Shown here: one piece after another, positions 231 to 57,012 of the stretch
How the letters are laid out: every line of letters starts with the position of its first letter
Numbering within the stretch: the stretch's first letter is position 1
DNA from: a virus
Taxonomy: Duplodnaviria > Caudoviricetes
Virus record (IMG/VR): IMGVR_UViG_3300032295_002162
Span: 1-60,063 of that record
Direction: 5' to 3' (one strand)
Length of the DNA stretch: 60,063 nucleotides
The notes under the pieces: model-generated
The model's database searches: none
Told to the model about the DNA's origin: nothing
What the model saw: only the letters and a program-made list of their open reading frames with translations
Program-made: the position numbers and the translations under genes

Positions 231-302
231 AGCGGTGCGAAGGTTTTGCTCCCCCTCCTCCACACTGGAATGTGTGATGTGCTACTATTACACCAATACC
301 GC
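231..302 (-). tRNA. Non-canonical tRNA-Gly-like RNA (TCC inside an 8-nt anticodon loop; degenerate D- and T-loops)
   Basis: Minus strand folds as GCGGTAT-TG-GTGT/AATAGTA/GCAC-A-TCACA/CATTCCAG/TGTGG-AGGA-GGGGG/AGCAAAA/CCTTC-GCACCGC-T. Has Gly identity elements G1-C72, C2-G71, G3-C70, U73 and CC in the anticodon. No encoded CCA. Confidence 0.75.
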
Positions 303-309
303 TTATAAA

Positions 310-1170
310 AATAAGGATGAGAATACTCCGTATCGTAAACCAGCTTTAGAAAGATTATTGTTTCCTTTCGTTTCCACATCCTTTTGAGATGTACCGATTC
401 AATGCAGGTTATTTAAGATTAACCACTCTTTAAGTTGTAACTTACTCACCTATTACTCCCCTTATTCAATCCTGCCGAACTGATTCAACCTTGCGGGTCT
501 ATAAGCTTTTCGTAGATATCACATCCGCCTTGCGAGCGTTTGTGGCTGGGAACATCTCCCAACTATGTATGCACCTTTCGGTCACAACTGATGAACACTC
601 TTGCTTTATGTTTATTTATAAGTTTTTACACCGAAGTAAAAATAAAGTTTTGGTTCGTAGATGGATTCAGGTAGTGGTTCACCATAGGCTTCGTTATCTT
701 TTGAACAACGAAATACCAAACTACCCGATGTGTTATCCCTAACACCATACTTCAAGTCATCTTCATTAGAAGGGGTTGGTGCCCCAAACTAAAGGATAGC
801 AACGCCACCACGCGTTTACAGTCTTATCTTACTACCTTTCGTATAGCTTGATGTTAAGACCACTTTTGTATTGAATCACGCAATAGTATGAAGGGATTAA
901 GTTCATATTTCTTACATTAATTCTATGAGTTATTCTTATTGGTGTTCCCACCTCAACCAAAGAATCTACAATTCCTCAGTCATTCCGGCTCTTCGATGAT
1001 AGTGTTACCCCCACCTACAAAGTCAGAATGATATCTCACTTGCTTACTCGAGCTCCAAAGGTTTTGAAGCCGCAAGATGCTTAACCAAACATCTCACTTT
1101 ATCCTACTTTCGTAGTTTATTTAACGACCATAAGCGGCCACTCTATTATGTAACTCAAGGTTACTATATA
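310..1170 (-). ncRNA. Large ornate structured ncRNA, GOLLD-like (boundaries approximate)
   Basis: ~860 nt with higher GC than its flanks and no credible ORF. Many GNRA-capped hairpins on the minus strand (CTAC-GAAA-GTAG, GACC-GAAA-GGT, ACCC-GCAA-GGTT). AT-rich linker with a UUCG hairpin at ~605-655. Own promoter, boxA-like leader, adjacent to tRNAs. Confidence 0.6.
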
Positions 1171-1184
1171 GAATTATTTCAATA

Positions 1185-1195
1185 TTTTAAAGAAC
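1185..1195 (-). promoter_or_regulatory. boxA-like antitermination element in the leader of the large ncRNA
   Basis: GTTCTTTAAAA on the minus strand, similar to rrn boxA; a near-identical motif precedes the tmRNA. Confidence 0.5.
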
Positions 1196-1225
1196 TTTTC
1201 AGAACTTGCTTCTGATTTACTTTTG

Positions 1226-1257
1226 TAAAGATACGAAACTTTTTTCGAAATTCCTAA
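1226..1257 (-). promoter_or_regulatory. Bacteroidota-type sigma70 promoter
   Basis: TTAGG-N19-TATCTTTA, same register as 13 other copies. Confidence 0.6.
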
Positions 1258-1285
1258 TATTTTTACAAATATTTTTTATTTTTTT

Positions 1286-1361
1286 AAATGTGAATCAAAC
1301 TTATGCCCTGTTAAGGATACTCCGTTTATACTACTCTCACATTTGAATCGGTAGTGCGATT
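1286..1361 (-). ncRNA. Putative ~75 nt small structured RNA
   Basis: Directly downstream of its own promoter; AATCG/CGATT hairpin followed by an AAATGTGA/TCACATTT stem; no ORF. Confidence 0.4.
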
Positions 1362-1365
1362 TTTA

Positions 1366-1397
1366 TAAAGATACGAAATAATTTTCACAATTCCAAA
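1366..1397 (-). promoter_or_regulatory. Bacteroidota-type promoter
   Basis: TTTGG-N19-TATCTTTA. Confidence 0.65.
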
Positions 1398-1410
1398 TCT
1401 TTTTTTAAAT

Positions 1411-1571: not shown

Positions 1572-1644
1572 TTGCGAGGGAAGGATTCGAACCTCCGACC
1601 TTTAGGTTATGAGCCTAACGAGCTACCACTGCTACTACCTCGCG
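1572..1644 (-). tRNA. tRNA-Met(CAT), initiator type
   Basis: CGCGAGG...TTAGG-CTCATAA-CCTAA...GGTTCGAATCC...CCTCGCA-A; C1xA72 mismatch typical of fMet; CCA not encoded. Confidence 0.95.
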
Positions 1645-1698: not shown

Positions 1699-1719
1699 TC
1701 TTTTTTTAAATTTTTTTAG

Positions 1720-2086
1720 TGGAGGTGAAGGGAGTCGAACCCTTGTCCAAATACGGATTTAATAAACCTCATTCACAAGCTTAGTTAGTTTTTCTTAACT
1801 AACAAAATAGATAAAGATTTATACATTCATTATCATTAATGTTTCCAATTCGATTTCGGGTTCAATTGGTATCCACCTTTGTACACATTCTATTTAAAGT
1901 CCCACGATGTGTGCGGGAGGGATTAGGCTGCTAGAGCGTAATCAGCACCAACGAATGCCATAGCATCTTCGAAGGTCATTGTAGATAATTCTACGTCATT
2001 TATTGTTCGATAGGTATTTACGGATTTCCATCTAACCCGACTTGCAACTTACCAACTCATCGCACCTGTCAAAACCAGGCACCCCC
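1720..2086 (-). ncRNA. ssrA: tmRNA
   Basis: 5' GGGGGTGCCTGGTTTTGACAGG and 3' GGGTTCGACTCCCTTCACCTCCA form an acceptor stem with G3.U70. Tag frame 1997-1923 encodes DVELSTMTFEDAMAFVGADYALAA*. Confidence 0.95.
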
Positions 2087-2858: not shown

Positions 2859-3239
2859 TTATTTTTTGTCCAATACTTTAGTTTTTCTAGCTTTTTTAAT
2901 TGGCTTTTTCAAAGATTCTTCGTATCGTTTTTTTAATTTAACCAATTCAGCACATTTCTCATATTCTTCAATTGATTCAAAATGCCTTAACATACCATCT
3001 ATAGTTTCGGCAAGTTCTTCTCTAACTAACATAAACTCAAATGCCAATGCATTGAATTCTGATAATCTACTATGTCCTTTCGATTTAATTATTAATTTTA
3101 AAATTAGTTTTAAATCATCTTTACTATCCATAAAATCAGATAGTTCATCATACAATGAATTTAGTATTAGGTCTTTGTTTTCTTCAACCCAATCTTCCAT
3201 CGATGAACCACTATCTAAATATATTATCTTATGCTTCAA
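2859..3239 (-). CDS. Hypothetical protein with C-terminal UVR-like motif
   Basis: EEYEKCAELVKLK. Confidence 0.55.
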   Translation of the reverse strand: MKHKIIYLDSGSSMEDWVEENKDLILNSLYDELSDFMDSKDDLKLILKLIIKSKGHSRLSEFNALAFEFMLVREELAETIDGMLRHFESIEEYEKCAELVKLKKRYEESLKKPIKKARKTKVLDKK

Positions 3240-3864
3240 TTTGTGGGAATAAAATGTTTTTCATAAAATATTGTGCTTCCTCTGCTCCTATTAAAGCTTT
3301 TAGTGCCGAATAGGTTCGTGGATTTGATGCTTGTACCTGACAATAAGTATTTTGCTTACTGATTACAACATCGATATCATCGGTTTTCTTCTCTAACCAA
3401 AGTAGGGAATTAAGATACCAATCGTATTTATCTACCACCCAATCACAAAAACGAATGAATTCTTCATCAGATTCGGGCTTTAACATAATAAACCTATCAG
3501 AGAATACAGTAGCCCACTCAGGAATCTTCTTTCTTTCCCTAAAGTCTATACCATCATCAAACGGATAGGTGGCTATAATGGGGCTTAAATCCATGTAGGC
3601 GCCGGTAACTATTTTACCTGTGCATATCACATCAAATCCAAATATCGGTTCAGGAGACCACCTATGTGGAAACGTAGTGAAGTGTAACACTTCAATCTTA
3701 CCATCGGCATATCTTTCAACATGAGCTAAACGAAAATGCTTAGCTTCATATCGGTGATTCTCCCAACCATAATCATCAGTATGTAGTGGTTGGCAGCCAG
3801 GTGCCAACTCTACCATACCTTTTAATTTAGTTGCTAAATGATTCAGATACTCTTTGTAATTCAT
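3229..3864 (-). CDS. Ferredoxin-dependent bilin reductase (PcyA/PcyX family)
   Basis: FRLAHVE, EVLH, PIFGFDVI, MDLSP, PEWATVFS and NPRT motifs; adjacent to heme oxygenase. Confidence 0.9.
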   Translation of the reverse strand: MNYKEYLNHLATKLKGMVELAPGCQPLHTDDYGWENHRYEAKHFRLAHVERYADGKIEVLHFTTFPHRWSPEPIFGFDVICTGKIVTGAYMDLSPIIATYPFDDGIDFRERKKIPEWATVFSDRFIMLKPESDEEFIRFCDWVVDKYDWYLNSLLWLEKKTDDIDVVISKQNTYCQVQASNPRTYSALKALIGAEEAQYFMKNILFPQIEA

Positions 3865-4363
3865 CTAGTATTGCTATATTGTAATCTAATGCTTTATTTG
3901 CTTCATCTCCCATCTCATCTTTTTGGAATGCTCTAACACTACCAATTAATTCCATTTGATTTTCAAACTCATACATCTTACCACTACCTGGAACTTTTGA
4001 TTTCATCATTTGTCCACCAAACATTAGGGCTAAGTAGTTCAAATAAATATGAGCAAGTATCCTATCATCGGTTAATGATTCCAAATACATACCATATTTT
4101 TTGGTTGATTCTAATGATGGGAATTTATCACTTACCTCTTTCTGAAGTTCTTGAATATCAGCAAATACTCTTTCCAATCTTTTTAAATCAGGGTGCATTT
4201 GTGGAATCTTATGTTCCTCTATACATTGAAAGATTGATGCTTGCTGATGTAGATAGAATAAATACTCTTTCTTACTCAACTCACCTCTAAACATTTTAGC
4301 ATTGAACGGCATTCTTTCTGCCTGTGTGTGCTTTTCTTGAATAGCTTCTTTTAATGGTAACAT
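3827..4363 (-). CDS. Heme oxygenase (biliverdin-producing)
   Basis: LKEAIQEKHTQAE proximal His helix; LAHIYLNYLALMFGGQMM distal helix. Confidence 0.9.
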   Translation of the reverse strand: MLPLKEAIQEKHTQAERMPFNAKMFRGELSKKEYLFYLHQQASIFQCIEEHKIPQMHPDLKRLERVFADIQELQKEVSDKFPSLESTKKYGMYLESLTDDRILAHIYLNYLALMFGGQMMKSKVPGSGKMYEFENQMELIGSVRAFQKDEMGDEANKALDYNIAILDELQRVSESFSN

Positions 4364-21679: not shown

Positions 21680-22564
21680 TTAAGGGTTACTTTTTCCATC
21701 CATTTTTTCTACAAATTTCTTAGTCTCTTCCGCAAATAATCCCATTGCTTTGGTATAAAATTCGTTCTTTTTATCAAAACTAACTAATTTGCCCGAAAAT
21801 GATGGCGTTTTACGATGGATATCTTCTGCTATGTATATACCATCCAATATGTATTGTCTTATAGGATACCCTTTTTGTTGTAACCAACTAGCCATAGTCA
21901 TACTATATGTATCTTCAGGCCCATACCCCCCAAATGATTCGGGTATTTCGATGGTTTCCCAAAATGATTTAGAATATAGAGTATGCATTCCACAGCCAAA
22001 TTTGAATCCTGTCAGTTGTTTGGCCTCTATCTTATCTATATCCTGCATTGGAGCAGAATCATTAGCTGCTATACTATGAGCATATCCCAACTCCTTATCT
22101 AAGAAATCTCTGTGTGTTAAAACTGCCCAGCTTTCATCCCACCACTTTGGAAGTGATGGTGAAATTACATACATATCATTTAACTGATATGAGATATTCA
22201 ATTGGTATTTTAGTAATTTTGGAGAAAATGATATATCGGTATCACAAAATACAAATTGGTCATAATCCAACTTTACACTTTCCCTTTTTTGCTGGGTAGT
22301 TCCCCATAGAGAATCATCGGTTGTAATTTCATTTATATTTGGAATTCCTTCAAATGCCAAATTGAATCTTCGGATGAAATAATCTTGCTTCAATTCACTG
22401 TTTTCCCAATCAGTTAATTTTGGATTAAGATTAAGTGATGCTTTAAATGCTATAGCATCAGTTTTTTCTAAATATGCCATAGAATAACGAAACAATAGCA
22501 TCAGTCTATATAACTGCTCTACTTCGTTTGGCATCACATGGATGCAAATTAAGGTTTTTTTCAT
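21680..22564 (-). CDS. GT-A fold glycosyltransferase-like protein
   Basis: FCDTD DxD motif; FGGYGPED. Confidence 0.7.
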   Translation of the reverse strand: MKKTLICIHVMPNEVEQLYRLMLLFRYSMAYLEKTDAIAFKASLNLNPKLTDWENSELKQDYFIRRFNLAFEGIPNINEITTDDSLWGTTQQKRESVKLDYDQFVFCDTDISFSPKLLKYQLNISYQLNDMYVISPSLPKWWDESWAVLTHRDFLDKELGYAHSIAANDSAPMQDIDKIEAKQLTGFKFGCGMHTLYSKSFWETIEIPESFGGYGPEDTYSMTMASWLQQKGYPIRQYILDGIYIAEDIHRKTPSFSGKLVSFDKKNEFYTKAMGLFAEETKKFVEKMDGKSNP

Positions 22565-23748
22565 ACTAACTTTTCTTGGTAGTATGAGTTATTTAGATTT
22601 GCCAATTCCAATTGGTATTCTATCATACTATTTATTGTTATTTTAAATATATCTAACTCAAATGTTCCAACTTCACCACTATCTTTAATTATATAGTGTA
22701 AGTTTTGGATAATTTTAAATGATTCATTGGTTAATTTAGTTCCATCAAATTCAACAACAATATCATTCTCGCCAATTGGGTCATTGTGTCCTATGATTAG
22801 AACTCTCTTATCAATATCAAACAGTGTATTCTCTCGTTCCATTTCGATGTAGTCCTGAGTTCTTCCTATCTCAAATACTTCATCTACATAAATTCTATCA
22901 CACCAAGGTTCTAATGCTTCTAATAACATTAAGTTACACTTATTTACAACAAATGCAACGTTGAATTTAGGTGGAATAATTGGATGTTGAAACTCATCGT
23001 TTTGTATCCAACTTCCCCATTTTCTTAAATAATTCCTACTAGCTTTTTTAGTTTGAATTTTGAAATAATCATCATCCTTACCAACAGCTTCAGTCCATCT
23101 ATGCCCTCTACAAGTTAGGTGATACACAAACGCATCTCTACTTTGAACTAATTTATAACCTGATAATATCCATCTTTGAAAAATATCACTATCTTCATAC
23201 GGAAATGGTGCGAATAACGGATCATGTCCACCCATTGCCTGAAAATCTTCTTTGTAAAGAATCCAAGGTGCGAACATACCCGTTGTAGTTACATCTTGCC
23301 ATTGACTTGATTGTTGCTCCAAACAATAAGTTTCAAACCCATCAATATCCAATGAATCAAAATCCATCCCAAAATCTTTGATTATCTTTTCTTTTCCGGC
23401 AGGGTGTAATGGTGGTTCAATTCTAGTTCCACAAACAACAACACCTTTCTTAAGATGTTTCATTAAGTTTGAAACATAGTTAGGACCTACAATCATATCA
23501 GCGTGTAGGATACCCACAACTGCGTTAGTAGCCAATTCTATACCTTTATCATAGAGAATAGTATGCCCAACTCTTTCTTCACTTCTGAATGAAATACAAT
23601 TTTGTTCTTGTATCCATTCCCAAGTTCCATCAGTTGAACCATCATCCAATAATACTAACTCAGCATCGGGTTCATTTCTCTGAATAGATTCTACAACATT
23701 TTTCAAGTGTCTTAAATTATTATAAGACGGTATTACGAAACTTATCAT
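22561..23748 (-). CDS. GT2 glycosyltransferase
   Basis: ISFVIPSYN, DDGSTDGT, HADM, GGHDPLF...EDSD. Confidence 0.9.
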   Translation of the reverse strand: MISFVIPSYNNLRHLKNVVESIQRNEPDAELVLLDDGSTDGTWEWIQEQNCISFRSEERVGHTILYDKGIELATNAVVGILHADMIVGPNYVSNLMKHLKKGVVVCGTRIEPPLHPAGKEKIIKDFGMDFDSLDIDGFETYCLEQQSSQWQDVTTTGMFAPWILYKEDFQAMGGHDPLFAPFPYEDSDIFQRWILSGYKLVQSRDAFVYHLTCRGHRWTEAVGKDDDYFKIQTKKASRNYLRKWGSWIQNDEFQHPIIPPKFNVAFVVNKCNLMLLEALEPWCDRIYVDEVFEIGRTQDYIEMERENTLFDIDKRVLIIGHNDPIGENDIVVEFDGTKLTNESFKIIQNLHYIIKDSGEVGTFELDIFKITINSMIEYQLELANLNNSYYQEKLV

Positions 23749-23776
23749 TTTATGTGTTGTTTATGTTTATATAATG

Positions 23777-24469: not shown

Positions 24470-24496
24470 ATATTAATTATAACGTTTTGCCAATTT

Positions 24497-25204: not shown

Positions 25205-25226
25205 TTCTATTTGTTTTTATATTATT

Positions 25227-26603: not shown

Positions 26604-26608
26604 TTGAA

Positions 26609-31273: not shown

Positions 31274-31275
31274 AA

Positions 31276-33651: not shown

Positions 33652-34405
33652 TTACTAACTTCCAACCTTTTAATCTTTGTTCTCTAAAAAATTCAGTCAT
33701 TATTTGTTTGAATGGAACTCCATCGATAGATGGTGTGTTGTTTTCCCACAATGAGGCCGAATCAGCTCCCCAATCTTTTGTGCTACCCCACATTTCAATA
33801 TCACTCTTTGGGTGTGGTGGAATATAAGAACCCAATCCCGCATACTTTTGTAACATATATGAAAAGTGCATATCTTCACCACAAGTATTATATCTCGGGT
33901 CTGGCAATTCTCTGAACATATACGATAACCATTCTTTCTTAAAGAACCAATTATGTCCAATGATATCCACTTGCACTGTCTTTTCATTATTACCTGCTGG
34001 TGGCCAACCAAAGCGAATGTAATGTTCATAGTAAGATGAATACTCAGGCGGTAATGGTTTAGGATAAAGTAATCCTACAGTTCCTAATAAACCTTCATGC
34101 GTTTTCATTGTTTCTAAACAATTCTCAATCCATTTAGAACCTGGAATTGTATCATCATCAATCACACATACATAAGGATTCTTAGCGTTCATAGCAAAAT
34201 AGAATCTTGCCCATACACCAAAGTTGTAATTACAATATGCAGCAGGTATTTCACCACCAATATCGTAATTAATCAAATCATCATCACCTGGATTATTATA
34301 CCATAAAAGAATCTCAGTAGGTTGAACCGTCTGAGCTTTTAAGGCTTCCATTTGAACGTTTAAGTTGTTACCTCTTTTGTAACCATTTAATATAACTGTA
34401 ACCAT
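33644..34405 (-). CDS. GT-A/GT2-like glycosyltransferase
   Basis: VIDDDTIPG, GEDMHFS. Confidence 0.8.
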   Translation of the reverse strand: MVTVILNGYKRGNNLNVQMEALKAQTVQPTEILLWYNNPGDDDLINYDIGGEIPAAYCNYNFGVWARFYFAMNAKNPYVCVIDDDTIPGSKWIENCLETMKTHEGLLGTVGLLYPKPLPPEYSSYYEHYIRFGWPPAGNNEKTVQVDIIGHNWFFKKEWLSYMFRELPDPRYNTCGEDMHFSYMLQKYAGLGSYIPPHPKSDIEMWGSTKDWGADSASLWENNTPSIDGVPFKQIMTEFFREQRLKGWKLVNE

Positions 34406-34408
34406 AAG

Positions 34409-35248
34409 TTAAAATTGTTTTATCATTCCGTATTCATCAAAGATAGGAAATTTTCCCCACTTTGCCAACCATTTTTGCTGATTTATTTGTTCACATTTAA
34501 TTTGTCTTTCCGAACTCTTACCATCGTTCTCTTCCAATCTATGAGAACCTCTAGCTCCAAAGTGCCAAACAAATGATTTGGATGGTAGAATAAATCTAAC
34601 ACCATTATTCATCATTCGTAAAAATAAATCCATATCTTCCCAACTACTCGGTGCAAATAAGGGGTCATTACCACCCGTTTCATTCCATACTTCTTTTTTT
34701 ACCAATCCACTAACACCTTCACCTTTTGGTATTTCAAAATCATTAGATTCTATAACCTCTTTTACCCACTCATCAAATCCATTTGAATCAAAATCATCGT
34801 GATATGCACCAAACGCGTCTTTTGGAACAATAACAGTTCCATACCTTTGTGGTGAACCAAACATATCGGGTTCAACTCTATGAGAATTTACCCATAATTT
34901 TTCATTTGGATATTTTTGGTGAACTTTTAACAATTCCAAATCCCAATCTTTTGTTACATAAAAATCTGAATGTAGAAACATAATGTATTCCGTTTCTACT
35001 CTTTCCGCACAAAAGTTCATCCCACCACCAATACCAATTGGTTCTTCGTTTTTATCAATATAAATTGATAAGTTATATTTCTTAGTATTTTCAAATAACC
35101 ATTCATCAGTTCCATCCGTGCAATTTTCAGCATGGATAATAAAAGGAGCATCTTTATAAAAAGAATTCTTACGAACACTTTCAATTGCTATCTTTAAATA
35201 AGGTAGATTATTGAATGTTGATATACAAAAAGTTAATGGAGTATTCAT
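34409..35248 (-). CDS. GT2 glycosyltransferase
   Basis: CTDGT, FLHSD, GGNDPLF...WEDMD. Confidence 0.85.
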   Translation of the reverse strand: MNTPLTFCISTFNNLPYLKIAIESVRKNSFYKDAPFIIHAENCTDGTDEWLFENTKKYNLSIYIDKNEEPIGIGGGMNFCAERVETEYIMFLHSDFYVTKDWDLELLKVHQKYPNEKLWVNSHRVEPDMFGSPQRYGTVIVPKDAFGAYHDDFDSNGFDEWVKEVIESNDFEIPKGEGVSGLVKKEVWNETGGNDPLFAPSSWEDMDLFLRMMNNGVRFILPSKSFVWHFGARGSHRLEENDGKSSERQIKCEQINQQKWLAKWGKFPIFDEYGMIKQF

Positions 35249-35877
35249 TATAATGTTTCGTAGTAGTTATTTTGTCTTTCTTGTCTTTCTATTTCTTTAT
35301 GATGATACAAACAATACTCCTCATCGGTTGGTAATACTGACAATGTATTATATCCAATAATTCTCTCATGCACCTTTCCTGTCCATTCTATTTCCGATGT
35401 TCTTCTGTAGATTCTGGTTTGATAATCCGGAAAGTTTACCCAACCATGTTCATTTAGTTTCCATCCCCATTTTTTAACATGCATATCAGTTAATCCTTCT
35501 ACGGTGTTAATACGTGGAACAAAGAAAAGGTCTACATCTTTATTATATTCCAATAATTGGTGAATATTTTCAACCAAATATTCATTTGGTATTTCATCTG
35601 CATCTACTTGAAAAATAAAAATACCATTTGCATGGTTTTTTAAATTGTTTTTATAAGATGCGAAATCACCAGCTAATGGAAATGATATAACCTTAATTGA
35701 TTTGTGTATTTGAGATACAATTGCAAGATACTGCTTAACCGCATCGGTAGCAGAATCTTCATCGTATTGGATTAATATCTCATCTTCCGATTTTATTTTT
35801 GGTTGTAAATAATCAACCAATTTTGTAATCTCTTTAAGCTCATTACAAACTGTAATAGCGTATGTAACATTTATCAT
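35248..35877 (-). CDS. GT2 glycosyltransferase
   Basis: QVDADE, PDYQTRIY, KVHE. Confidence 0.85.
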   Translation of the reverse strand: MINVTYAITVCNELKEITKLVDYLQPKIKSEDEILIQYDEDSATDAVKQYLAIVSQIHKSIKVISFPLAGDFASYKNNLKNHANGIFIFQVDADEIPNEYLVENIHQLLEYNKDVDLFFVPRINTVEGLTDMHVKKWGWKLNEHGWVNFPDYQTRIYRRTSEIEWTGKVHERIIGYNTLSVLPTDEEYCLYHHKEIERQERQNNYYETL

Positions 35878-36326
35878 AATAACGATTTTAAGAAATCAGA
35901 TTTTAATTTTACTTCTTGTATATAATTTAAACCCGCAATATTGTAAGTTCTATATGGTCTTGGGTTTGTGTTATATATAGATTTTCCTTTTATTTTACTT
36001 TCAAATAATTTATTACCCTGTATATCTGATTCAATTATTATATCTTCTAACTTTTTCATAGAATCAATATCCTCACTTTTTAAATCGGATTTTAATAATG
36101 TTTTTAACCAATTTTTAAAAATATCAGGAGAAACATCATTAAGTTTTAAACAATTTAATTTTTTTTCATGGATGCCAAATACAAATACTAATGATGAATT
36201 TGGTCCTGTTTGTGCACGAGCTTCACCATCTGAATAACTATATGATGAAATTCTATATAAATTTCCAGGTGTTATTAACGATTTGGAAATTCTAGCTTCT
36301 TTATCAATAAATCTACTATATACCAT
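35874..36326 (-). CDS. Hypothetical phage protein
   Basis: Coupled ORF with YRTY motif. Confidence 0.6.
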   Translation of the reverse strand: MVYSRFIDKEARISKSLITPGNLYRISSYSYSDGEARAQTGPNSSLVFVFGIHEKKLNCLKLNDVSPDIFKNWLKTLLKSDLKSEDIDSMKKLEDIIIESDIQGNKLFESKIKGKSIYNTNPRPYRTYNIAGLNYIQEVKLKSDFLKSLL

Positions 36327-36327
36327 A

Positions 36328-37176
36328 TTATAATGAGTTTATATATTCCTTTAATTTATCCGTAGGAGTCCACCCTAATCTATCAATTGCATCATTGTTA
36401 ACTCTGATAGTTTCTTTATAGTTACCTCTTTCCTGAGACATATACACTTTAACTGCACTAAACTTTTCAACAAACAATTCTGCAACTTCGTTTAGTGAAT
36501 AATTGAACCCAGTTCCTAATTCCCAAGCATCCTCATGCGTATCAGTTCCAAATGCGATTTTAATCAAACCATCAACAATATCATCGATGTGTGTGAAATC
36601 TCTTCTTTGCTCACCATCACCTACAATTGTAATTGGGTGGTTTTGCTCAACTTGTCCTCTCCACTTTCCAATTACAGCTGCCCATTTACCTTCCGTAATT
36701 TCACCAGGTCCATAAACGTTGTAGAATCTTGCAATCTCAACATTCAATCCGTATATCATACGATATAACTTACAAACATCTTCACCTAACTTTTTATACA
36801 ATGCGTATGGTGAAAGAAATGGGTCATGCCATTGTGAGGATGAACCACTATATACAACTTTTACATTGTTATGTCTTGCCCATTCACAAACTGCTTCAGT
36901 TCCCCTTGCGTTAACTCTGAATGTTTCTGATGGTTGTTCAAATGATGGTTGGATTCTACTTAATGCTGCTAAATGAAAACACAAATCTATACTATCACCC
37001 TTTAGGTATTCAATTTGTTCTATATCCCAAGGTAGGTATTTAACACCATCAACTTCATCTGCAGGTTTACCGATTTCATAGTTATCTAATCCAATAACAT
37101 CATGTCCATCTGCTATCAATCTTTTAGCAAGATTCTTACCAACAAATCCTAATGCGCCCGTTATTAGTATTTTCAT
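36328..37176 (-). CDS. NAD-dependent epimerase/dehydratase
   Basis: ITGALGFVG, HLAA, YxxxK (YALYK), NVYGP, GDGEQRRDF. Confidence 0.92.
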   Translation of the reverse strand: MKILITGALGFVGKNLAKRLIADGHDVIGLDNYEIGKPADEVDGVKYLPWDIEQIEYLKGDSIDLCFHLAALSRIQPSFEQPSETFRVNARGTEAVCEWARHNNVKVVYSGSSSQWHDPFLSPYALYKKLGEDVCKLYRMIYGLNVEIARFYNVYGPGEITEGKWAAVIGKWRGQVEQNHPITIVGDGEQRRDFTHIDDIVDGLIKIAFGTDTHEDAWELGTGFNYSLNEVAELFVEKFSAVKVYMSQERGNYKETIRVNNDAIDRLGWTPTDKLKEYINSL

Positions 37177-37177
37177 A

Positions 37178-38449
37178 TTATTGAACTTTATTTAATTTAG
37201 GTAATCTGATAGGAACAATAGTTGGTTTTCCTTTAGCGTATTTTTCCATAATATCTTCAAATTGCTTATTCATTTTTTCCAATGAAAAATTATTAACGAT
37301 ATTATCTTTCAATCCTTTAGATTGGTCTGAATATGTTTTATAGTTTTTATAAACATCGTGCATTTTATTAGCTGCGTTTGAATAATTTACAGTAAACCAT
37401 TGTGCCTCTTTCATAAGAAATTGGTCTGCCGCAGATTCATCAACTGCCGTTAACGAACCATCTAATAAAACAGTATTTTCTTTTGGTAGGAAATCTAAAT
37501 GACCACTCCAATTAGAAACTAAAATTGGTTTGCCAGTTGTTGCAAATTCTGCTAAAGGTCTACCATATCCTTCACCTTTAGCAAATGATACCATAGCTTT
37601 AACTTTTGGATGATGATATAAAGAAGCCATTTCACTTTCATTCAAATCACCATGCATCAAGTAGATAGGAGGACATTTATCACCAAATGTTTTAGTAATA
37701 CTATCAATTCTTTCAGCCATATTTTCTCTATCCATAACAGAGAATCCAGCTGATGATGTTTTTACAATCAAACCCGGTTGTTGTCCTTTTGGAATATATT
37801 GGAATACCGTAGCGAATGTTTTAATCACCATTCCAATATCTTTTCTATCCTGACCTAAATTACCCTTTAACCAATGCCCTACAGCTAAGAAGTTAAAATC
37901 GGTTTCAATTTTATCAAGTTGAGTTAAATTAGTTTTAGTTTCTGGCAAAAATACTGATAAATCAACACCTTCCATCAAAACTTCAACAGGTTTATTAACT
38001 CTAAATTCATTAACAATTTGACCTGTATTTTGATCTTTTTGTTGATATGCAGTTCCTACTAAAGAATTTTTAGTAAATGTAGATGGGACTAATGTTAAAT
38101 CCATTTTGTTTGTTCCATCGATAAATTCTTTTGGAACAATTGTAGTTTCAACTCCAGCAGTAATACCGATATTATAATTACCCATTGGAGTAAATTCGTT
38201 TGCTACTGAAACTTGCATAAAAATATCAGGCTTTACTTCAATTTGTCCGATTACTCTTTCCAACATCCATCTACCAAAATCAGTTTGTCCATCCACTTGG
38301 TTTTGTGGAGTATTACCCCATCTCATTGGGATGATTTTTATATTATATTTGTCCATCTTACGAAGAGATTTCAATAAATCTCTACAATGGTCACCATAAC
38401 CACTTCTCGTAAATACTGGCCCTTGAAATACTAATGTTTGCTTATTCAT
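37178..38449 (-). CDS. GT4-like (GT-B) glycosyltransferase
   Basis: RSGYG, RKDIG, KGEGYGRPLAE, WSGHLDF. Confidence 0.88.
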   Translation of the reverse strand: MNKQTLVFQGPVFTRSGYGDHCRDLLKSLRKMDKYNIKIIPMRWGNTPQNQVDGQTDFGRWMLERVIGQIEVKPDIFMQVSVANEFTPMGNYNIGITAGVETTIVPKEFIDGTNKMDLTLVPSTFTKNSLVGTAYQQKDQNTGQIVNEFRVNKPVEVLMEGVDLSVFLPETKTNLTQLDKIETDFNFLAVGHWLKGNLGQDRKDIGMVIKTFATVFQYIPKGQQPGLIVKTSSAGFSVMDRENMAERIDSITKTFGDKCPPIYLMHGDLNESEMASLYHHPKVKAMVSFAKGEGYGRPLAEFATTGKPILVSNWSGHLDFLPKENTVLLDGSLTAVDESAADQFLMKEAQWFTVNYSNAANKMHDVYKNYKTYSDQSKGLKDNIVNNFSLEKMNKQFEDIMEKYAKGKPTIVPIRLPKLNKVQ

Positions 38450-38454
38450 AACTT

Positions 38455-39858
38455 TTATTTAATTTTAAATACATCAAATCTATCACGCGGTTTCCAATTT
38501 GCTAAAGTGGTATCAATACCTTCACTCATTGTGTTAATCATATTGGTATGAGATAATCCCATATCACCGATGAATGCTTCTCTACCTTCCAAACCATTAG
38601 CTTTTCTTTCCTCTTTAGGAGTTTCATACATTTCTAAAATAGCCTGTGCTACTTCTTCCAAATCTACTCTATCATCCCAAATATAAGGTGTAGGAACTGA
38701 ACCTGCTAAACTTCTACTTCTACTCCATACCGGTCTAGCCCAACTTCCACAATTCAATTTATCTTCCCATTGTCTCCAATCGTGTAATGAACCCAATTCG
38801 ATATAATCATCTGGCGTTAGCAATGCTCCATCTTGTGTAAAGCCTGCCTGGTCTTGCAATCCACCCGTAACATTGATAATGATAGGAGTTCCAGCCATTA
38901 CTGATTCTGCAGTTGCTAATCCAAATCCTTCGTTGTTAGCTATGTTGATTGTTACATCTGCGATGTTATATATAAGATTTAATTCTTCAACAGGTCTCCT
39001 CTTTTCTGAAAAGATAATATTACTCTTTGATGCTACTGCCTCAATTACTTTAGGTAAATCAGTTCCGTTTTCATCGATAGGTTGTGTGTGCATTAGTAAA
39101 CATACTTTCTTTGCTTTCTCTTCACCAATCATTTCACAAAAACGATTGAATGCCCAAATCACATCAGCTGGTTGTTTTCTTCTAATGTTACGATTACTCC
39201 AATATAATACAAAATCATAGTCACCACCCTTTAAAATTTCTTTACGGAATTCCGCAGGAACTTCTGCTGGCTTATATACTTCAGTATTAATTCCGTGAGG
39301 AACATAACTAACTTGCCAAGGTTGTTTTGGCTGCCAAGTTGTTCCATTATCTAATGCTGATAATCTTTTAATGATACCATACGTTTGTCGAGAGATACAA
39401 CCAATCCAATCACAACTTTCATAATAGTTACGATTATATAATGGATCTGGCAAATCATCCCAAATTGCGTAGAATAAAATTGGAACGTTTTGTCTGATTT
39501 CATGCTCCATTTCATATAACCAAATCCAATATCTCGGGTCAGTAAAGTGTAAGATAGCATCAGGTTGTTCTGCATTAATTAGTTGTCTAATCAAATCCGC
39601 ATTACCATATCCATTCCAAGGAAGAACTTTAACCGATGCATCTGCTACACCCGTTCTTTGTCTAATATCTTCACTTAAATCCAATACTCTACCTTGTTCA
39701 GGGTGATTAATAGCGGCACCTACCTGAAACCAATCATATTTATCAACTGTACCTACAACAAATTCTTTTGACATTGTAGCTATACCACTTGCCATTCTTA
39801 AATCATCCGAAAGTAATAGGATTTTTGGTTTTTTCTTTGTAACGTTTTCCATTAACAT
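38455..39858 (-). CDS. GT4-like (GT-B) glycosyltransferase
   Basis: VPHGI, NRNIRRK, NEGFGLATAES, TGGLQD. Confidence 0.9.
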   Translation of the reverse strand: MLMENVTKKKPKILLLSDDLRMASGIATMSKEFVVGTVDKYDWFQVGAAINHPEQGRVLDLSEDIRQRTGVADASVKVLPWNGYGNADLIRQLINAEQPDAILHFTDPRYWIWLYEMEHEIRQNVPILFYAIWDDLPDPLYNRNYYESCDWIGCISRQTYGIIKRLSALDNGTTWQPKQPWQVSYVPHGINTEVYKPAEVPAEFRKEILKGGDYDFVLYWSNRNIRRKQPADVIWAFNRFCEMIGEEKAKKVCLLMHTQPIDENGTDLPKVIEAVASKSNIIFSEKRRPVEELNLIYNIADVTINIANNEGFGLATAESVMAGTPIIINVTGGLQDQAGFTQDGALLTPDDYIELGSLHDWRQWEDKLNCGSWARPVWSRSRSLAGSVPTPYIWDDRVDLEEVAQAILEMYETPKEERKANGLEGREAFIGDMGLSHTNMINTMSEGIDTTLANWKPRDRFDVFKIK

Positions 39859-39872
39859 TTTTGTTTTAACAA

Positions 39873-40076
39873 TTAAAATTGAGAACCGCTGATTTGTAGT
39901 TTTAGATATTCGTTCATTTCGTGTCTAAATTCTTCATCGGTTACATATCTTTCTACAGTTCTATTAACTAATTTTTGTAAAGTTACATCCGAATCGAACG
40001 ATACTTTTTTAAATGATGAATATACATCTTTAAGAAGTTTTACGGTTGTAAGCTTTGTGTTATCATTTTGCTTCAT
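39873..40076 (-). CDS. Ribbon-helix-helix-like small DNA-binding protein
   Basis: LTTVKL strand followed by two helices. Confidence 0.55.
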   Translation of the reverse strand: MKQNDNTKLTTVKLLKDVYSSFKKVSFDSDVTLQKLVNRTVERYVTDEEFRHEMNEYLKLQISGSQF

Positions 40077-43754: not shown

Positions 43755-44972
43755 TTATCTTCCTACTTCTCCTAAATAATTTTCTTTCATTTGTTCCCAA
43801 CTCATTCCAATTGCATCAATATAGAATAAATGTTCAGGTTTCAATCTACCTTCATCATGTAGTTTTGTATATCTACTGATTGCATGTTTCTTCCACCATT
43901 TGTTAATGTATTCAACACCTTGCTCAAACTTAGGTTTTAGGATTAGTTTATCTTCATCAATTCTATTACATAAGAAATCGTTTCCGTTCTCATACATCAT
44001 AGCGAAATAAACACCTCTCTTAAATCCGTGATGATATTCAGTTGCTTTGATACCACACTCTTTGAAGATTTGTCCTAATATCTTTTGTTTGATACCACTA
44101 ACAGGTCCACTAGCTCCATCACCTGCTCCCATATTAGCACCATTACGAATACGTTCATTTGTGATATTGTTCTGATACCATTCAGCACGATTCTCTTTTA
44201 ACCATTGATGCCAAGGGTCATAGAATTTATCATCCGGCTTCAAACTAATTTTACCGGCTGATTCTCCTAAAGTTTTGAATAAAGGGATACCATTATATTG
44301 TGAGTGAATACCATATAAAGATGTTGTTCCAACTGCAATTAAAGTATTACCATATTTGGTTTTCCAATAGTTGCGAATTTCAGGAACAGTAGTCATCATA
44401 GCCACTAACTTACCACCTAAGAAGTTGTAACCTAATGGTTGGGTGCATACAATTGTAGAAGCGATAGTAGTATTGTTTAACTTACCATCAACAAACTTAT
44501 TATCTTTAGTCCAACCAATGTAGTTATCTCTAACTCCCATAGCTGTAACATCGGATGCTAATGAAATTTGTCCTAATAGTTTTCCACTTACTCTATCTTT
44601 TACATTAATCTTTACATTTCTGCCAGGGTTTGCTGTAAAATCCATTGTATGAATCATACGTCTTACCGCTGCCCATTTAGTAGATTCCTTCGGGTCATCA
44701 ACAATCTCAACGTAAGGGTCTAACGATTCAATTTCTTTTATCGTTAGCTCCTTATTGTTGATATCAGTTGGTTTCCATTGAAGGTCATAATAAGATGCAA
44801 TTTGGGATTTTGCTTGAATCATTGTAGGTTCTTGCAATTCTACCCACTTCTTATACAATGTTTGTTCCTGCACACTCATTGTCATAAGGTAGTCCATATT
44901 TTCTTTTAACTTTACTTTTTCAATATCAAAGTCAAAGACAGGTTTTTGTGGTTCAGTATCCCAAAAGCTCAT
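43755..44972 (-). CDS. DUF4338/DruA-like protein (Mom-related), long form
   Basis: PGRNVK, RDNYIGW, QPLGYNFLGGKL, WKTKYG, TTSLYG..SQY, LGESAG. Confidence 0.8.
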   Translation of the reverse strand: MSFWDTEPQKPVFDFDIEKVKLKENMDYLMTMSVQEQTLYKKWVELQEPTMIQAKSQIASYYDLQWKPTDINNKELTIKEIESLDPYVEIVDDPKESTKWAAVRRMIHTMDFTANPGRNVKINVKDRVSGKLLGQISLASDVTAMGVRDNYIGWTKDNKFVDGKLNNTTIASTIVCTQPLGYNFLGGKLVAMMTTVPEIRNYWKTKYGNTLIAVGTTSLYGIHSQYNGIPLFKTLGESAGKISLKPDDKFYDPWHQWLKENRAEWYQNNITNERIRNGANMGAGDGASGPVSGIKQKILGQIFKECGIKATEYHHGFKRGVYFAMMYENGNDFLCNRIDEDKLILKPKFEQGVEYINKWWKKHAISRYTKLHDEGRLKPEHLFYIDAIGMSWEQMKENYLGEVGR

Positions 44973-53928: not shown

Positions 53929-54645
53929 TTATACCTCACAAAGCTTTGATTTCCAGTCTTTTACAAGCGGTTTTAAAAAAACTTTCTTTATAGGGGATTG
54001 GGTTACCACATAATGCTCCCTACCAACGGCATATTTCTTAATAGCCTCTTCGGGGTGGTTTCTAGCCATTTCACCCCTCTTAGAATCCTCCTTTTGCCAC
54101 AACAATAGTGGTGCCTTCTTAATGGAGTTTCCTAGAGTTTCACCAATCATAACCCAATTATCAGCCAAATATACCGCACCATTTCGTTTATTATCAGAAC
54201 CATCAATTAGGGGTTGAACAAATGTTTCTAACATTACCAATTCATCACCATATTTTTCCTGCCATCTTTTTGCACCAACTTCTCTTAATAATTTAAGAGC
54301 CATCGTTCCAACATTTTTAATACCATTATCTGGCACTAAACAAAACCTATAGTTATTTGCTACTTTATTTGAGTTTTTAAGACGAGTATCTTTATTCCAA
54401 CCAATCCAATTATCCCTAGCACCAATTGCTAATACGCAAGATGAAATACCAATTGCTCCAATTGGTTCACCATCAGCCGAACGATAAATTAGGTAATTGA
54501 TTCTTCTTTGTGGGACATCTTTATACTTCACATACGAATGATGTGTGTTTATTATATCTCTGAATATTTTTGTTTGAGATGGGTTTAAACACTCTTGTAA
54601 AAATATAGGATACTCATAAGAATTACTATAATCAAAAAATGACAT
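53929..54645 (-). CDS. DUF4338/DruA-like protein (Mom-related), short form
   Basis: HHSY, RINYLI, RDNWIGW, VANNYRFCL, WQEKYG, LETFV, GAVYLADNWVMIGET. Confidence 0.88.
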   Translation of the reverse strand: MSFFDYSNSYEYPIFLQECLNPSQTKIFRDIINTHHSYVKYKDVPQRRINYLIYRSADGEPIGAIGISSCVLAIGARDNWIGWNKDTRLKNSNKVANNYRFCLVPDNGIKNVGTMALKLLREVGAKRWQEKYGDELVMLETFVQPLIDGSDNKRNGAVYLADNWVMIGETLGNSIKKAPLLLWQKEDSKRGEMARNHPEEAIKKYAVGREHYVVTQSPIKKVFLKPLVKDWKSKLCEV

Positions 54646-54648
54646 TTA

Positions 54649-55122
54649 CTAAGAGTTTTTTGATTCCAAATACTCATAAAATTTGTTACTAGCAACCGAT
54701 TTGTTTTTTCTGAGTAATCCTTTCTCATTCATATCAACCAAATCATCTTTAGTGATTTCGATGAATGCTAATTCCGATAGATTTCGGAAATCAATTCCAA
54801 TATATGAATCTAATGAATCTAACTTTTCAGCGTAACCTTCTTCCGTTACACTTCTACCAAATCCAACTTCTTTAGATGAAGCGAAACTAATACCATGTGT
54901 GATACTTCTAACTTCAATTCTTTCTCCATTTACACCATCAACATCATAAGAACTTCCTTCACTTTTAGCTCTATTACCTCCCATTTTGTTGGCGTAAATA
55001 AACTCACCTAAACGTCCTACAATTCTACCATCATTAAAAAACTTAATGGTTTCCTCAACACTCAATCCCAATCCCTCAGCTACCTTTTCTAAATCCAATT
55101 GATGTTTTAACTTTTGTTCCAT
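54649..55122 (-). CDS. Possible PD-(D/E)xK restriction-endonuclease-like protein
   Basis: GRLGE...SYDV...IEVRS spacing. Confidence 0.5.
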   Translation of the reverse strand: MEQKLKHQLDLEKVAEGLGLSVEETIKFFNDGRIVGRLGEFIYANKMGGNRAKSEGSSYDVDGVNGERIEVRSITHGISFASSKEVGFGRSVTEEGYAEKLDSLDSYIGIDFRNLSELAFIEITKDDLVDMNEKGLLRKNKSVASNKFYEYLESKNS

Positions 55123-55150
55123 TTGTGTTTATCGTTTATCGTTTATATTG

Positions 55151-55182
55151 TAAAGATCTGAAAAATACCTGATATTTCCAAA
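55151..55182 (-). promoter_or_regulatory. Bacteroidota-type promoter, GATC variant
   Basis: TTTGG-N19-GATCTTTA. Confidence 0.6.
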
Positions 55183-55186
55183 CTTT

Positions 55187-55453
55187 TTACCAACTATTAT
55201 AGATACCAATTGCACCAACTATTAACCAAAATGTGTTCATTATGATATATGGTTTGTTATTTCGTTCCCAAGCACAATATGTTAGTAATACCGCATCAAA
55301 TGTATTAAATACCCACATCCAAAGGAATGGAGTATCCTTTCCCATTACAGATAACATACCAAATGTAGATATTCTTATAACTACACCAATACCCTCTAAT
55401 AACTCCAATATCTTGTCTGATTTAATCAGTTTACCTTTCGGTTGTTGTTTCAT
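55187..55453 (-). CDS. Small three-helix membrane protein
   Basis: Hydrophobic segments; MNTFWLIVGAIGI. Confidence 0.65.
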   Translation of the reverse strand: MKQQPKGKLIKSDKILELLEGIGVVIRISTFGMLSVMGKDTPFLWMWVFNTFDAVLLTYCAWERNNKPYIIMNTFWLIVGAIGIYNSW

Positions 55454-55454
55454 A

Positions 55455-56255
55455 TTACCAATATTTTTGTTCTATCGAATCTTCAGGTGGATGTGTATCC
55501 CAATGAATTACATCCGTATTATAAGATGATGCATCTTTTGGATACGGCATTATTGGATGTTTTAATCTTTTAAATAAATCCTTCTTTTCTTTCTTATCTT
55601 GTGCAAGAATTTGAATGTATCTATGTTTAGGTGGTTCTTCTCTTCTCCAAAATTCTTTATAACCACTCTTACCAATTTCTTTTCTTAAATGCTCTAAGTT
55701 ATTACTTCCCCAAGTTGAGAATACAGTTCTACTATGAATCCATTTAAAAGGATTATCTGAAAGTGAGATACCATAGTTAGGCATTAGGGCAATATCAGTA
55801 TTTAACCCCTGATAAATCCAATTCGTTGCCTGATATATACCTCCTAAATGTTTTTGTCCATTGTCAGCGTATGAAATTAAAACCTTAATTGCTTTATCAT
55901 TTTCCTTTAACCATTTGAAAGATTGTCCTAATGCAAATGATTCGATATTAGAACCATAACCATCATCACAATAAAGGCGAGTTAATTCCAATACATTATC
56001 TTTTGTTAATCCTTCACAAACCGATGTTGGTGCTTTTGCTCCAACAGGAAAACCATAAATGATTGCACCAATTAATTTATCACCATCAAATGTTGTAAGA
56101 TTATCTTCTCTATAATAAATACCCAATGAGTATCTACAAGCTGTCCAAGCGTGAGTGTAGTGTTTCTTAACAATAATATCTTTAGCTATACTTTTAGATA
56201 TTGGTGCTACATACACTTTAGAAGTATCACAATATTGTTTACCGTCAACTTTCAT
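55455..56255 (-). CDS. Mom-family adenine-modification (GNAT-like) protein, paralog 2
   Basis: KKHY, LIGAIIYG, LELTRL, ES, LISYAD..Q.HLGGIYQATNWIYQG, HSRT, KHRY. Confidence 0.88.
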   Translation of the reverse strand: MKVDGKQYCDTSKVYVAPISKSIAKDIIVKKHYTHAWTACRYSLGIYYREDNLTTFDGDKLIGAIIYGFPVGAKAPTSVCEGLTKDNVLELTRLYCDDGYGSNIESFALGQSFKWLKENDKAIKVLISYADNGQKHLGGIYQATNWIYQGLNTDIALMPNYGISLSDNPFKWIHSRTVFSTWGSNNLEHLRKEIGKSGYKEFWRREEPPKHRYIQILAQDKKEKKDLFKRLKHPIMPYPKDASSYNTDVIHWDTHPPEDSIEQKYW

Positions 56256-57012
56256 TTGTAACTGGATTTAATTGATGTATTTCTTCCATAAAATCTTCCG
56301 ATGTTTTCGGATATGGAAGCGTTGGGTGTTTTAATTCCTTTAATAATTTTTTTCTATCTTTACCACTAACTAAAATATAAACATATCTATGCTTTCGTGG
56401 TTCTTTCTTAATCCAAAATGGTGATGTTACCATTGTTTGAATTATCTTTGGGTCATTCGTTCCATACTTTACATACGAAGTTCTACTATGATGCCATTCA
56501 TCATCTTCGTTCCATTTAAAACTCCAACTATCATTGTATCTAAGTTTGTTACCCTGATATAACCAATTGGTTGCTTGATAGATTGTTCCGTTGTGTCCAA
56601 CTTTTGGATCTGAATATGATATCAGAGCTTTGATATGTGGTGCGTTTTCTCTTAACCAATCAAATGTTTGAGATAAAAACCAACTTTCAATGTTAGAACC
56701 ATAACCATCAAATACAAATAATCGGGTTAGTTCTAATACTTCAGTTCTCTCTAAAGAAGGTGTAATTGATTGCCCAGCACTTCTACCAATTGGGTCACCA
56801 TAACAAGCAACTCCAATTAGTTTTTCCTCTACGTTTGCAAAAAATGCGTGCTCTTCTACATCAGATGTAAATAAACCAATAGCATATGATACTTTAGTCC
56901 ACAATCCACTATAATGGTTATTGATGATAATATCTTTAGCTACCGATTTGTTTATTGGCCTGATTGATAATTTCGAAGTATCGCAGTATAGTTTGTTTTC
57001 TATTTTACCCAT
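56245..57012 (-). CDS. Mom-family adenine-modification (GNAT-like) protein, paralog 1
   Basis: NNHYS, LIGVACYG, LELTRL, LISYSD...HNGTIYQATNWLYQG, HSRT, KHRY, LPYPK. Confidence 0.88.
   Translation of the reverse strand: MGKIENKLYCDTSKLSIRPINKSVAKDIIINNHYSGLWTKVSYAIGLFTSDVEEHAFFANVEEKLIGVACYGDPIGRSAGQSITPSLERTEVLELTRLFVFDGYGSNIESWFLSQTFDWLRENAPHIKALISYSDPKVGHNGTIYQATNWLYQGNKLRYNDSWSFKWNEDDEWHHSRTSYVKYGTNDPKIIQTMVTSPFWIKKEPRKHRYVYILVSGKDRKKLLKELKHPTLPYPKTSEDFMEEIHQLNPVTNES

Follow-up and report, generated by a model that had tools for sequence, protein, structure and literature searches.

The 60,063-bp window studied here is a whole viral record (IMG/VR IMGVR_UViG_3300032295_002162; 32% G+C, without end overlap), and our subject is a non-canonical tRNA-like RNA, derived from tRNA-Gly(UCC), which it encodes on the minus strand at 231..302, directly behind a GOLLD RNA. 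The same phage carries two paralogs, A and B, of the Mom protein of phage Mu. We found that the presence of this element follows that of the Mom cassette, which was swapped repeatedly in the phage group. The RNA and Mom are probably coupled functionally, and we give about an even chance to the full mechanism, in which the element would serve as a dedicated, non-decoding glycyl donor for Mom; in our best reading it also ends the GOLLD transcript. An earlier note on this DNA had proposed such a donor. The literature, the co-occurrence with Mom and the variation of the anticodon loop speak for that interpretation, with two corrections: the RNA belongs to the GOLLD unit, and an odd tRNA is not obligatory for Mom.

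In order to follow the association with Mom, the protein was sought in whole contigs with its Pfam model, the window being the positive control, and the region behind GOLLD was read by a uniform rule, i.e. an element with GCG...CGCU ends, 58-106 nt long, lying between GOLLD and the first non-Gly tRNA of the array. The count takes in every contig (31 in all) that shows the cassette as well as the 3' flank of GOLLD. An element with Gly identity was present at the GOLLD flank in 17/17 contigs with Mom and in 0/14 contigs with an alternative cassette (Fisher test 3.8e-9, uncorrected). Fifteen of the Mom contigs carry odd elements; the other two, G061 and G062, have a GOLLD sequence in common and carry canonical ones. 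The alternative-cassette contigs show a minihelix of ~45 nt, nothing (G009 and its near-duplicate) or a degenerate element (G077), the latter being a homologous tRNA-like RNA devoid of acceptor pairs C2-G71 and G3-C70 and of the UCC. Among GOLLD contigs outside the near clade, Mom was found in 0/36.

Pairs of close relatives repeat this pattern. Contigs G016 and G009 are collinear over ~18 kb, with 97-100% identity for the proteins flanking the cassette and 67-100% for the others, and they differ in the cassette itself (Mom A and B versus a pair formed by a pyridoxal-phosphate-enzyme-like, or PLP-like, protein and a methyltransferase-like one) and in a clean stretch of ~200 nt holding two odd tRNA-Gly genes. 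The same contrast is seen between G013 and G002, whose upstream flanks are 92-96% identical. A maximum-likelihood tree built from the 3' domain of GOLLD implies 7 or more changes of cassette state, and the independent contrasts were concordant in 5/5 cases on well-supported branches and in 7/7 on all branches. GOLLD lies between the element and the Mom locus, and the two loci are 8-79 kb apart; thus one recombination tract cannot swap both without replacing GOLLD and, since the joint changes are incongruent with the GOLLD tree, a single tract is no explanation for them. The test of co-occurrence with Mom that the earlier note had suggested, applied within the clade of this phage, thus speaks in its favour.

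The element itself scores 26.5 bits with the Rfam tRNA model (RF00005; E 0.012 over 2.6 kb), short of the gathering score of 29, and 94.4 bits with our own covariance model R1; ARAGORN run on the window does not call it at 302..231. Its acceptor end is made of G1-C72, C2-G71, G3-C70 and U73, its anticodon is U34C35C36, and U73 is followed by C without an encoded CCA. The bacterial glycine identity set has been described as U73, G1-C72, C2-G71, C35 and C36 (PMC9976931, PMC7826273); all of these are present and are invariant in 8 aligned homologues, in agreement with the claim of the earlier note that the elements read by glycyl-tRNA synthetase (GlyRS) are kept. The features of translation are altered, as it had also proposed. 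The anticodon loop AUUCCA, with an invariant closing C-G pair, has 6 nt, or 8 nt if the pair is open, the D loop (AAUAGUA) is without the GG doublet and the T loop (AGCAAAA) without U54-U55, so that the 7-nt anticodon loop with U33, the G18G19 and the U54-U55-C56 featured in RF00005 are all missing.

A DNA pattern drawn from the D arm and loop detected the element in 7 other IMG/VR contigs, where it starts 7-12 nt past a GOLLD RNA of 280-306 bits. Two further matches of this pattern (L017 and L018) were discarded as chance matches, and four candidates of a first GOLLD pattern (L002-L004 and L006) were discarded as having no GOLLD. The window element and its 7 homologues were aligned (8 sequences, 22 pairs). 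Paired cells amount to 93.7%, versus 33-58% in controls with slid partners; changes on both sides are seen in 4/6 anticodon-stem pairs and in 1/5 T-stem pairs, and 0/500 shuffles reached the covariation score. The alignment thus gives covariation support to a four-helix cloverleaf, with pairing mostly absent at acceptor positions 6-66 and 7-65. The loops are identical across the 8 homologues, with a mean column identity of 88%. A fold of the plus strand of 225-310 showed no tRNA match, and the homologues favour the minus strand. More distant versions that adjoin GOLLD in further contigs were obtained with R1 and ARAGORN. Finally, the first 13 nt of a second tRNA-Gly-like element (GCGGUUCGAAGUG, minus strand), cut by the contig end, lie at 1..13 and align with the opening nucleotides of the second element in the relative L001 (242..171, R1 53.6 bits). 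The element is thus real, conserved and structured, with its Gly identity nucleotides kept and its stems and loop size varying. The coordinates given by the earlier note are exact, on the minus strand, and the RNA stands above chance; that note had missed the GOLLD lying 11 nt upstream and the second element at the contig edge.

We then consider the family in relatives, a set of ~35 distinct GOLLD-proximal elements picked by their GCG...CGCU ends. Their anticodon loops all hold NCC, which is mostly UCC and in a few cases ACC or CCC, and the base after U73 is C in all of them; CCA is encoded in some only. The loops themselves vary in size and sequence: CGUCCAG, with G at position 33, which is universally U; CGACCAG; the 6-nt CAUCCG; and the 8-nt CAUUCCAG, CAUUCCUG and CGAUCCAG. 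Canonical 7-nt loops with U33 (CUUCCAG, CUUCCAA, CUCCCAG) occur in few elements only. The altered T and D loops are a feature of the subtype to which the window element belongs. Since the identity set is kept and the decoding features vary, the part read by GlyRS is retained and the part needed by the ribosome is not, and the variation in loop size together with G33 among close relatives argues against a decoding role. Canonical tRNA-Gly(UCC) is also present in the tRNA arrays of relatives, both Mom-bearing and Mom-lacking. Judged from these sequences, the element family seems to consist of surplus tRNA-Gly paralogs unfit for protein synthesis. A metagenome scan gave 120 loci, including 27 near-clade GOLLD loci with further element variants; none of the 27 reaches the cassette, so they add no contrasts. 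In four loci (L371, L408, L386 and L537) the D loop carries a hairpin insert of ~25 nt (GGUUCCAC.CGGGUUUACCC.CGGGAUAG) along with the 8-nt loop CGAUCCAG.

The presence of two Mom paralogs at 55455-57012, put forward in the earlier note, was established with PF25680. Mom A (255 aa, 56245..57012, minus strand) matches the family at 1.4e-44 and the Mu Mom structure (PDB 8bv8) at 8.6e-09, and Mom B (266 aa, 55455..56255, minus strand) at 4.1e-45 and 1.2e-05, respectively; their scores of 154.4 and 152.6 bits exceed the PF25680 cut-off of 27.1. The two proteins are 43% identical, their genes overlap by 11 nt, and the Pfam model gave 2 Mom matches in each Mom-bearing contig to which it was applied. 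The best Mom match in the phage database is that of Polaribacter phage P12002L (48% identity). Mu Mom transfers glycine from Gly-tRNA-Gly onto adenine N6 of double-stranded DNA, the adduct rearranging to N6-carbamoylmethyladenine, and accepts 3/3 E. coli Gly isoacceptors and refuses Gly-tRNA-Ala; its authors suspect a recognition of the acceptor end (PMC13219725). That work confirms the use of Gly-tRNA-Gly as donor, which the earlier note had mentioned. Residues of Mu Mom were located in the paralogs after correcting the numbering of the 8bv8 chain, offset by 9 from that of the paper, by means of H58 and Y59; we checked the essential R111, S124 and R151 and the important D149. The equivalents of H58, Y59, R111, S124 and Y159 are invariant in A and B (22 orthologues each), and the D149 position holds D in 22/22 Mom A and D (16) or N (6) in Mom B. 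That Mom A and Mom B form a heterodimer is a reasonable guess because Mu Mom is a dimer; the prediction of their complex returned a score of zero, which is evidence neither way.

The phage also encodes the two relatives of DruA (DUF4338) listed in the earlier note, and both match PF14236 above its cut-off of 27, with 78 and 64.2 bits. The first (238 aa, 53929..54645, minus strand, 9e-22) shares the Mom core motif NG.iY.A.NW in a local BLASTP match to Mom A, and the second (405 aa) lies at 43755..44972 on the minus strand (1.5e-17).

The locus next to the ribonucleotide reductase gene carries in relatives either the Mom pair or the alternative cassette. In the window, the large subunit of this reductase (57714..59495, minus strand) is the synteny marker adjoining the Mom cassette; its orthologues (87-96% identity) stand beside Mom in G003, G004, G014, G016, G107, G109 and G110, and in G009 the orthologue adjoins the alternative cassette. 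The core of the latter is made of one or two 410-aa N6/N4-methylase-like proteins with motifs DFSAGWG and SPPY. It is joined by the PLP-enzyme-like protein in G009 (L238:11692-13702, minus strand), and by an AsnB-like amidotransferase-like protein (MCGI..., SGGIDS) and a small GNAT-like protein in G002 (L241:9426-13828, minus strand); the same three gene types as in G002 are found in G020 (L217:11032-14115). The Pfam scores in this cassette are sub-threshold, and the AsnB-like and GNAT-like proteins were named from motifs read by eye. Mom was found in 0/25 alternative-cassette contigs, and strong matches to the alternative cassette occur only in Mom-lacking contigs. GOLLD lies within 10 kb of the alternative cassette in 2/71 loci, and elsewhere on the contig in 1/25 of the longest. 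The cassette has the appearance of another, so far uncharacterised system for DNA hypermodification.

In the window, the conserved 3' domain of GOLLD lies at 314..728 on the minus strand (RF02032, 316.9 bits versus a gathering score of 150, model 1-416), and the whole RNA probably spans ~1155 to 314. RNA contigs from 4 metatranscriptome runs of 4 studies (X1, X3, X5 and X10) cover 309-1155 and not 1156-1309; they cover 55-219 in part, while 232-308 is left uncovered by all and no contig joins GOLLD with the tRNA-like RNA. As RNA ends are not visible in contigs, this coverage is neither for nor against processing. The summed word depth of GOLLD in the metatranscriptome contigs rises to thousands, and in 19 further RNA runs, from 10 studies, 28-49% of the sampled words are present. 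A promoter-like site (TTTAAA-17-TATAGT, a consensus match only) is located at 1191..1163 on the minus strand. The spacer from the GOLLD 3' end to G1 of the tRNA-like RNA has 11 nt (303..313, minus strand), and no terminator-like site was seen between the two RNAs in the window. In relatives this spacer has 7-13 nt, usually with AUAA at its end. The earlier note had taken the link to Mom to be functional and not positional; the coupling to Mom is maintained, but the element is positionally tied to GOLLD and not free-standing.

What stands behind GOLLD was compared over 109 loci, 21 of the near clade and 88 more distant. In many Mom-lacking relatives, and in G013, the slot is occupied by a tRNA minihelix of ~45 nt without an anticodon arm, which consists of a 6-7-bp acceptor stem, an 11-nt connector (AAUGGUUAAUG) and a canonical T arm (UUCGAUU), as at L005:5860-5924 (minus strand), L217:7395-7453 (minus strand), L165:2646-2705 (plus strand) and many other loci. 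It tracks the alternative cassette (11/14 contigs, versus 1/17 of the Mom-bearing ones). Its fold energies are not better than those of shuffles (z -0.7, -1.2 and +0.7), and its support is an acceptor-stem covariation between lineages, read by eye. In a later set, many GOLLDs of distant clades (L389, L393, L397, L341, L351, L367 and others) show directly 3' a strong hairpin with a T run (GCCAAAAGGUGUUACA...UGUGACACCUUUUUUUG), resembling an intrinsic terminator, and no tRNA. Since a tRNA-Met or such a hairpin follows distant GOLLDs, a tRNA or terminator at this place is generic, and a slot of this kind would suit the formation of the GOLLD 3' end.

Between the two tRNA-like elements of the window lies a structured spacer RNA of ~200 nt (20..230, minus strand), found in an alignment of 12 relatives, with 18 predicted pairs of which 11 show compensatory changes. 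Its closing helix UUCGU...ACGAA is invariant and it ends in a hairpin GAAAG...CUUUC. It follows the tRNA-like RNA or the minihelix, in Mom-bearing and Mom-lacking relatives alike (L001:249-458, L015:4171-4371, L128:3936-4138, L313:2374-2579 and others), is present in RNA contigs (93-190, exact, in run X1; 55-219 in run X3), and had no family match in an Rfam search.

In the mechanism that we propose, the RNA at 302..231, made by the phage, would descend from tRNA-Gly(UCC) and have given up decoding, its remaining function being to carry glycine privately for Mom A and B. It would be transcribed as the tail of GOLLD, because no terminator lies between them and the spacer has 11 nt. Host RNase P would then cut at G1, the same cut making the GOLLD 3' end, and trimming of the 3' end and completion of CCA would follow. 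Charging with glycine by host GlyRS is expected from published identity rules because G1-C72, C2-G71, U73, C35 and C36 are all kept, and the abnormal anticodon loop and elbow may exclude the RNA from the ribosome. By homology with Mu Mom, Mom A and B would move the glycyl group to adenine N6 of the phage DNA, and the modified DNA would be protected from restriction. Two layers can be distinguished in this proposal. In the generic one, the GOLLD 3' end would need something, which in many phages would be a tRNA-shaped substrate of RNase P. In the specific one, the Mom-bearing members of the clade would fill the slot with one or two chargeable, decoding-free tRNA-Gly derivatives. Where Mom is swapped out, these derivatives would be lost or would lose their Gly identity, as expected of a dedicated glycyl donor.

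Several points weigh against a dedicated donor. In G061 and G062 the slot holds only a canonical tRNA-Gly(UCC) with encoded CCA. To our knowledge, Mu has no tRNA of its own. Taken together, these two cases mean that an odd tRNA is not required for Mom; it is helpful and not obligatory. At the position of R151, essential in Mu, Mom A has K (16) or N (6) and 22/22 Mom B have G, therefore Mom A and B may not work exactly like Mu Mom. The slot is occupied in Mom-lacking relatives too, by the minihelix, and a tRNA-Met lies 10-23 nt past GOLLD in 15/88 distant loci, so that a tRNA at this place is generic. On the statistical side, the sign test on the 5 supported contrasts gives p 0.0625 two-sided, which is the best possible with 5 pairs and is above 0.05, and the definition of the trait was fixed after inspection of the data. 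Many contigs are fragments, and the count leaves out ~25 near-clade contigs in which the cassette region is uncovered (G001, G005, G007, G008, G010-G012, G015, G017-G019, G111, G114-G116, G118, G119, G121-G123, G125 and G126); loci L343, L357 and L395 are also outside the count. Two of these contigs, G122 and G115, were apparent counterexamples and were set aside as their contigs end at GOLLD itself.

The main rival to a glycyl donor is that the element is purely a processing handle of GOLLD or a tethered appendage, its Gly identity being a historical accident and its link with Mom a matter of ancestry or linkage. The start of the element 7-14 nt past GOLLD in every relative, the tRNA-Met in the same slot of distant loci, the minihelix (acceptor and T arm) with its covarying acceptor stem at the same place in Mom-lacking relatives, and published tRNAs or pseudo-tRNAs in or beside GOLLD (bioRxiv 2024.12.08.627333, PMC6582537) all agree with such a role. 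However, RNase P has no need of an anticodon arm, and still NCC and the closing C/G pair persist while the stem covaries; moreover, Gly identity disappears just where Mom is missing (G077), and the state of the element follows Mom over at least 5 independent contrasts, which GOLLD itself does not. We thus regard this explanation, taken alone, as unlikely, and it is compatible with a donor function as a second role of the same RNA. A decoy or regulator is a less probable alternative still. The RNA would absorb host factors attacking tRNA-Gly or Gly-tRNA-Gly, such as GNAT toxins and anticodon nucleases, or would buffer or inhibit Mom. TacT-type GNAT toxins recognise U73 and G71 of tRNA-Gly (PMC9976931), both kept in the element, and a coupling to Mom would also be expected if the element limited the drain of Mom on the translational pool of Gly-tRNA. 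Nevertheless, no defence or toxin gene was seen to co-vary with the element, and the conserved C35C36, needless for a pure acceptor-end decoy, points to recognition and charging by GlyRS.

That the element is a working decoder, either an extra tRNA-Gly for GGA and GGG or a suppressor of quadruplet or +1 frameshift type, appears very improbable to us. Anticodon loops of 8 nt are a hallmark of frameshift-suppressor tRNAs, and the phage carries many tRNAs and a transfer-messenger RNA (tmRNA) in addition to this 8-nt loop. Against this, close relatives differ both in loop size (6, 7 or 8 nt) and in what stands at position 33 (G, U or AU), which a single decoding function would hardly allow; the window subtype has lost the canonical elbow bases of its T and D loops, and a canonical tRNA-Gly(UCC) is also present. 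A decaying tRNA pseudogene without function can hardly be defended: the sub-threshold Rfam score and the miss by ARAGORN are what such a relic would give, but all four helices are maintained by compensatory changes, the 8 homologues (88% mean column identity) do not differ in their loops, and more homologues are found in the 27 near-clade metagenome loci. A role as glycyl donor for Mom, combined with the formation of the GOLLD 3' end, therefore remains the reading that we prefer.

This reading has a precedent in Staphylococcus, where non-proteogenic tRNA-Gly serve as donors for FemX/FmhB, FemA and FemB; in S. aureus, FmhB prefers those whose D and T regions are altered, and these are poor binders of EF-Tu (PMC7826273). 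In both cases extra tRNA-Gly(UCC) paralogs keep the GlyRS identity set. The window RNA differs in being encoded by a virus and attached to GOLLD and in having an anticodon loop that is itself abnormal (6/8 nt, or G33 in relatives), and the acceptor is peptidoglycan in staphylococci and, presumably, DNA adenine here. The two are unrelated by descent, because the staphylococcal lineage is reported to be restricted to staphylococci. Compared with Mu, the window proteins match the Pfam Mom family and 8bv8 and keep the H58, Y59, R111, S124 and Y159 equivalents; they differ as two divergent tandem paralogs in which R151 is not conserved and for which a phage-encoded partner RNA is proposed, whereas Mu relies on host tRNA-Gly. 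In the portions of PMC13219725 that were searched there is no mention of a phage-encoded partner RNA for Mom, and a literature search that did not cover supplementary files found no link of a phage tRNA-Gly or of GOLLD with Mom. The occurrence of tRNAs or of a pseudo-tRNA in or beside GOLLD is already published (bioRxiv 2024.12.08.627333, PMC6582537), and the window GOLLD resembles these cases by its location in a phage tRNA island, downstream of a tRNA-Met. In contrast to the published systems, a non-decoding tRNA with Gly identity occupies the 3' slot here only in Mom-bearing phages; a dependence of the slot on Mom, with a minihelix or nothing otherwise, was not found in the literature. MALAT1-mascRNA offers a further likeness, as there, too, a long structured RNA without coding function is followed immediately by a tRNA-like fold, and the 3' end of the long RNA could be formed by RNase P, with the difference that this system is eukaryotic and nuclear and that cleavage of the phage RNA is presumed.

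A bolder extension would have the GOLLD 14-mer nanocage, with covalent glycine-charged tRNA tails, act as a concentrated donor depot for Mom, i.e. an RNA-built compartment feeding DNA hypermodification; the minihelix of sister phages would likewise serve the alternative cassette (MTase-like, AsnB-like and GNAT genes). It is compatible with the data because the tails stand 7-14 nt past GOLLD with no terminator and the kind of tail goes with the kind of DNA-modification cassette, and we consider it decidedly improbable.

As to the genome context, the source is a large freshwater phage whose relatives are jumbo-phage contigs. CheckV estimates a completeness of 31%, so that the full genome is probably ~190 kb. 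No close cultured relative was found in the phage database search, in which the best DNA matches were two uncultured phages (~640 kb), over GOLLD only. All open reading frames of at least 150 aa are on the minus strand. The left end is an RNA island on the minus strand with, in order, the tmRNA, tRNA-Met, GOLLD and the tRNA-Gly-like element. The tmRNA is encoded at 1717..2086 (RF00023, 107 bits; ARAGORN tag DVELSTMTFEDAMAFVGADYALAA, ending in ALAA) and the canonical tRNA-Met(CAU), upstream of GOLLD, at 1572..1644 (ARAGORN, and 56.2 bits with Rfam). The tmRNA is kept in relatives, with similar tags. Just upstream of the island are genes of a ferredoxin-dependent bilin reductase (3229-3864, minus strand, 5.7e-21) and a heme oxygenase (3827-4363, minus strand, 5.9e-12). 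Such auxiliary genes are typical of cyanophages, and the pair is found here in a freshwater phage of 32% G+C. Profile matches also delineate a sugar-nucleotide/glycan block of ~18 kb (22000-40000, minus strand), with GT2 and GT4 glycosyltransferases, a UDP-GlcNAc 2-epimerase, an NAD epimerase/dehydratase, a HAD-nucleotidyltransferase fusion and a methyltransferase. A family-B DNA polymerase and a clamp-loader-like ATPase are encoded as well.

The locus at which Mom and the alternative cassette alternate is a hotspot for the swapping of DNA modification in abundant freshwater jumbo phages, and the sub-threshold "pseudo-tRNAs" of phage tRNA islands can be under selection. If the proposed donor function is true, the element would be the first virus-encoded tRNA kept for DNA chemistry and not for translation, and the principle of the staphylococcal non-proteogenic tRNA would reach phages and DNA hypermodification. 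The newly discovered tRNA dependence of Mom would gain a genetic partner, from which Mom would need an acceptor end and GlyRS identity and no working anticodon loop, and the 3' end of the GOLLD RNA would receive its first functional handle.

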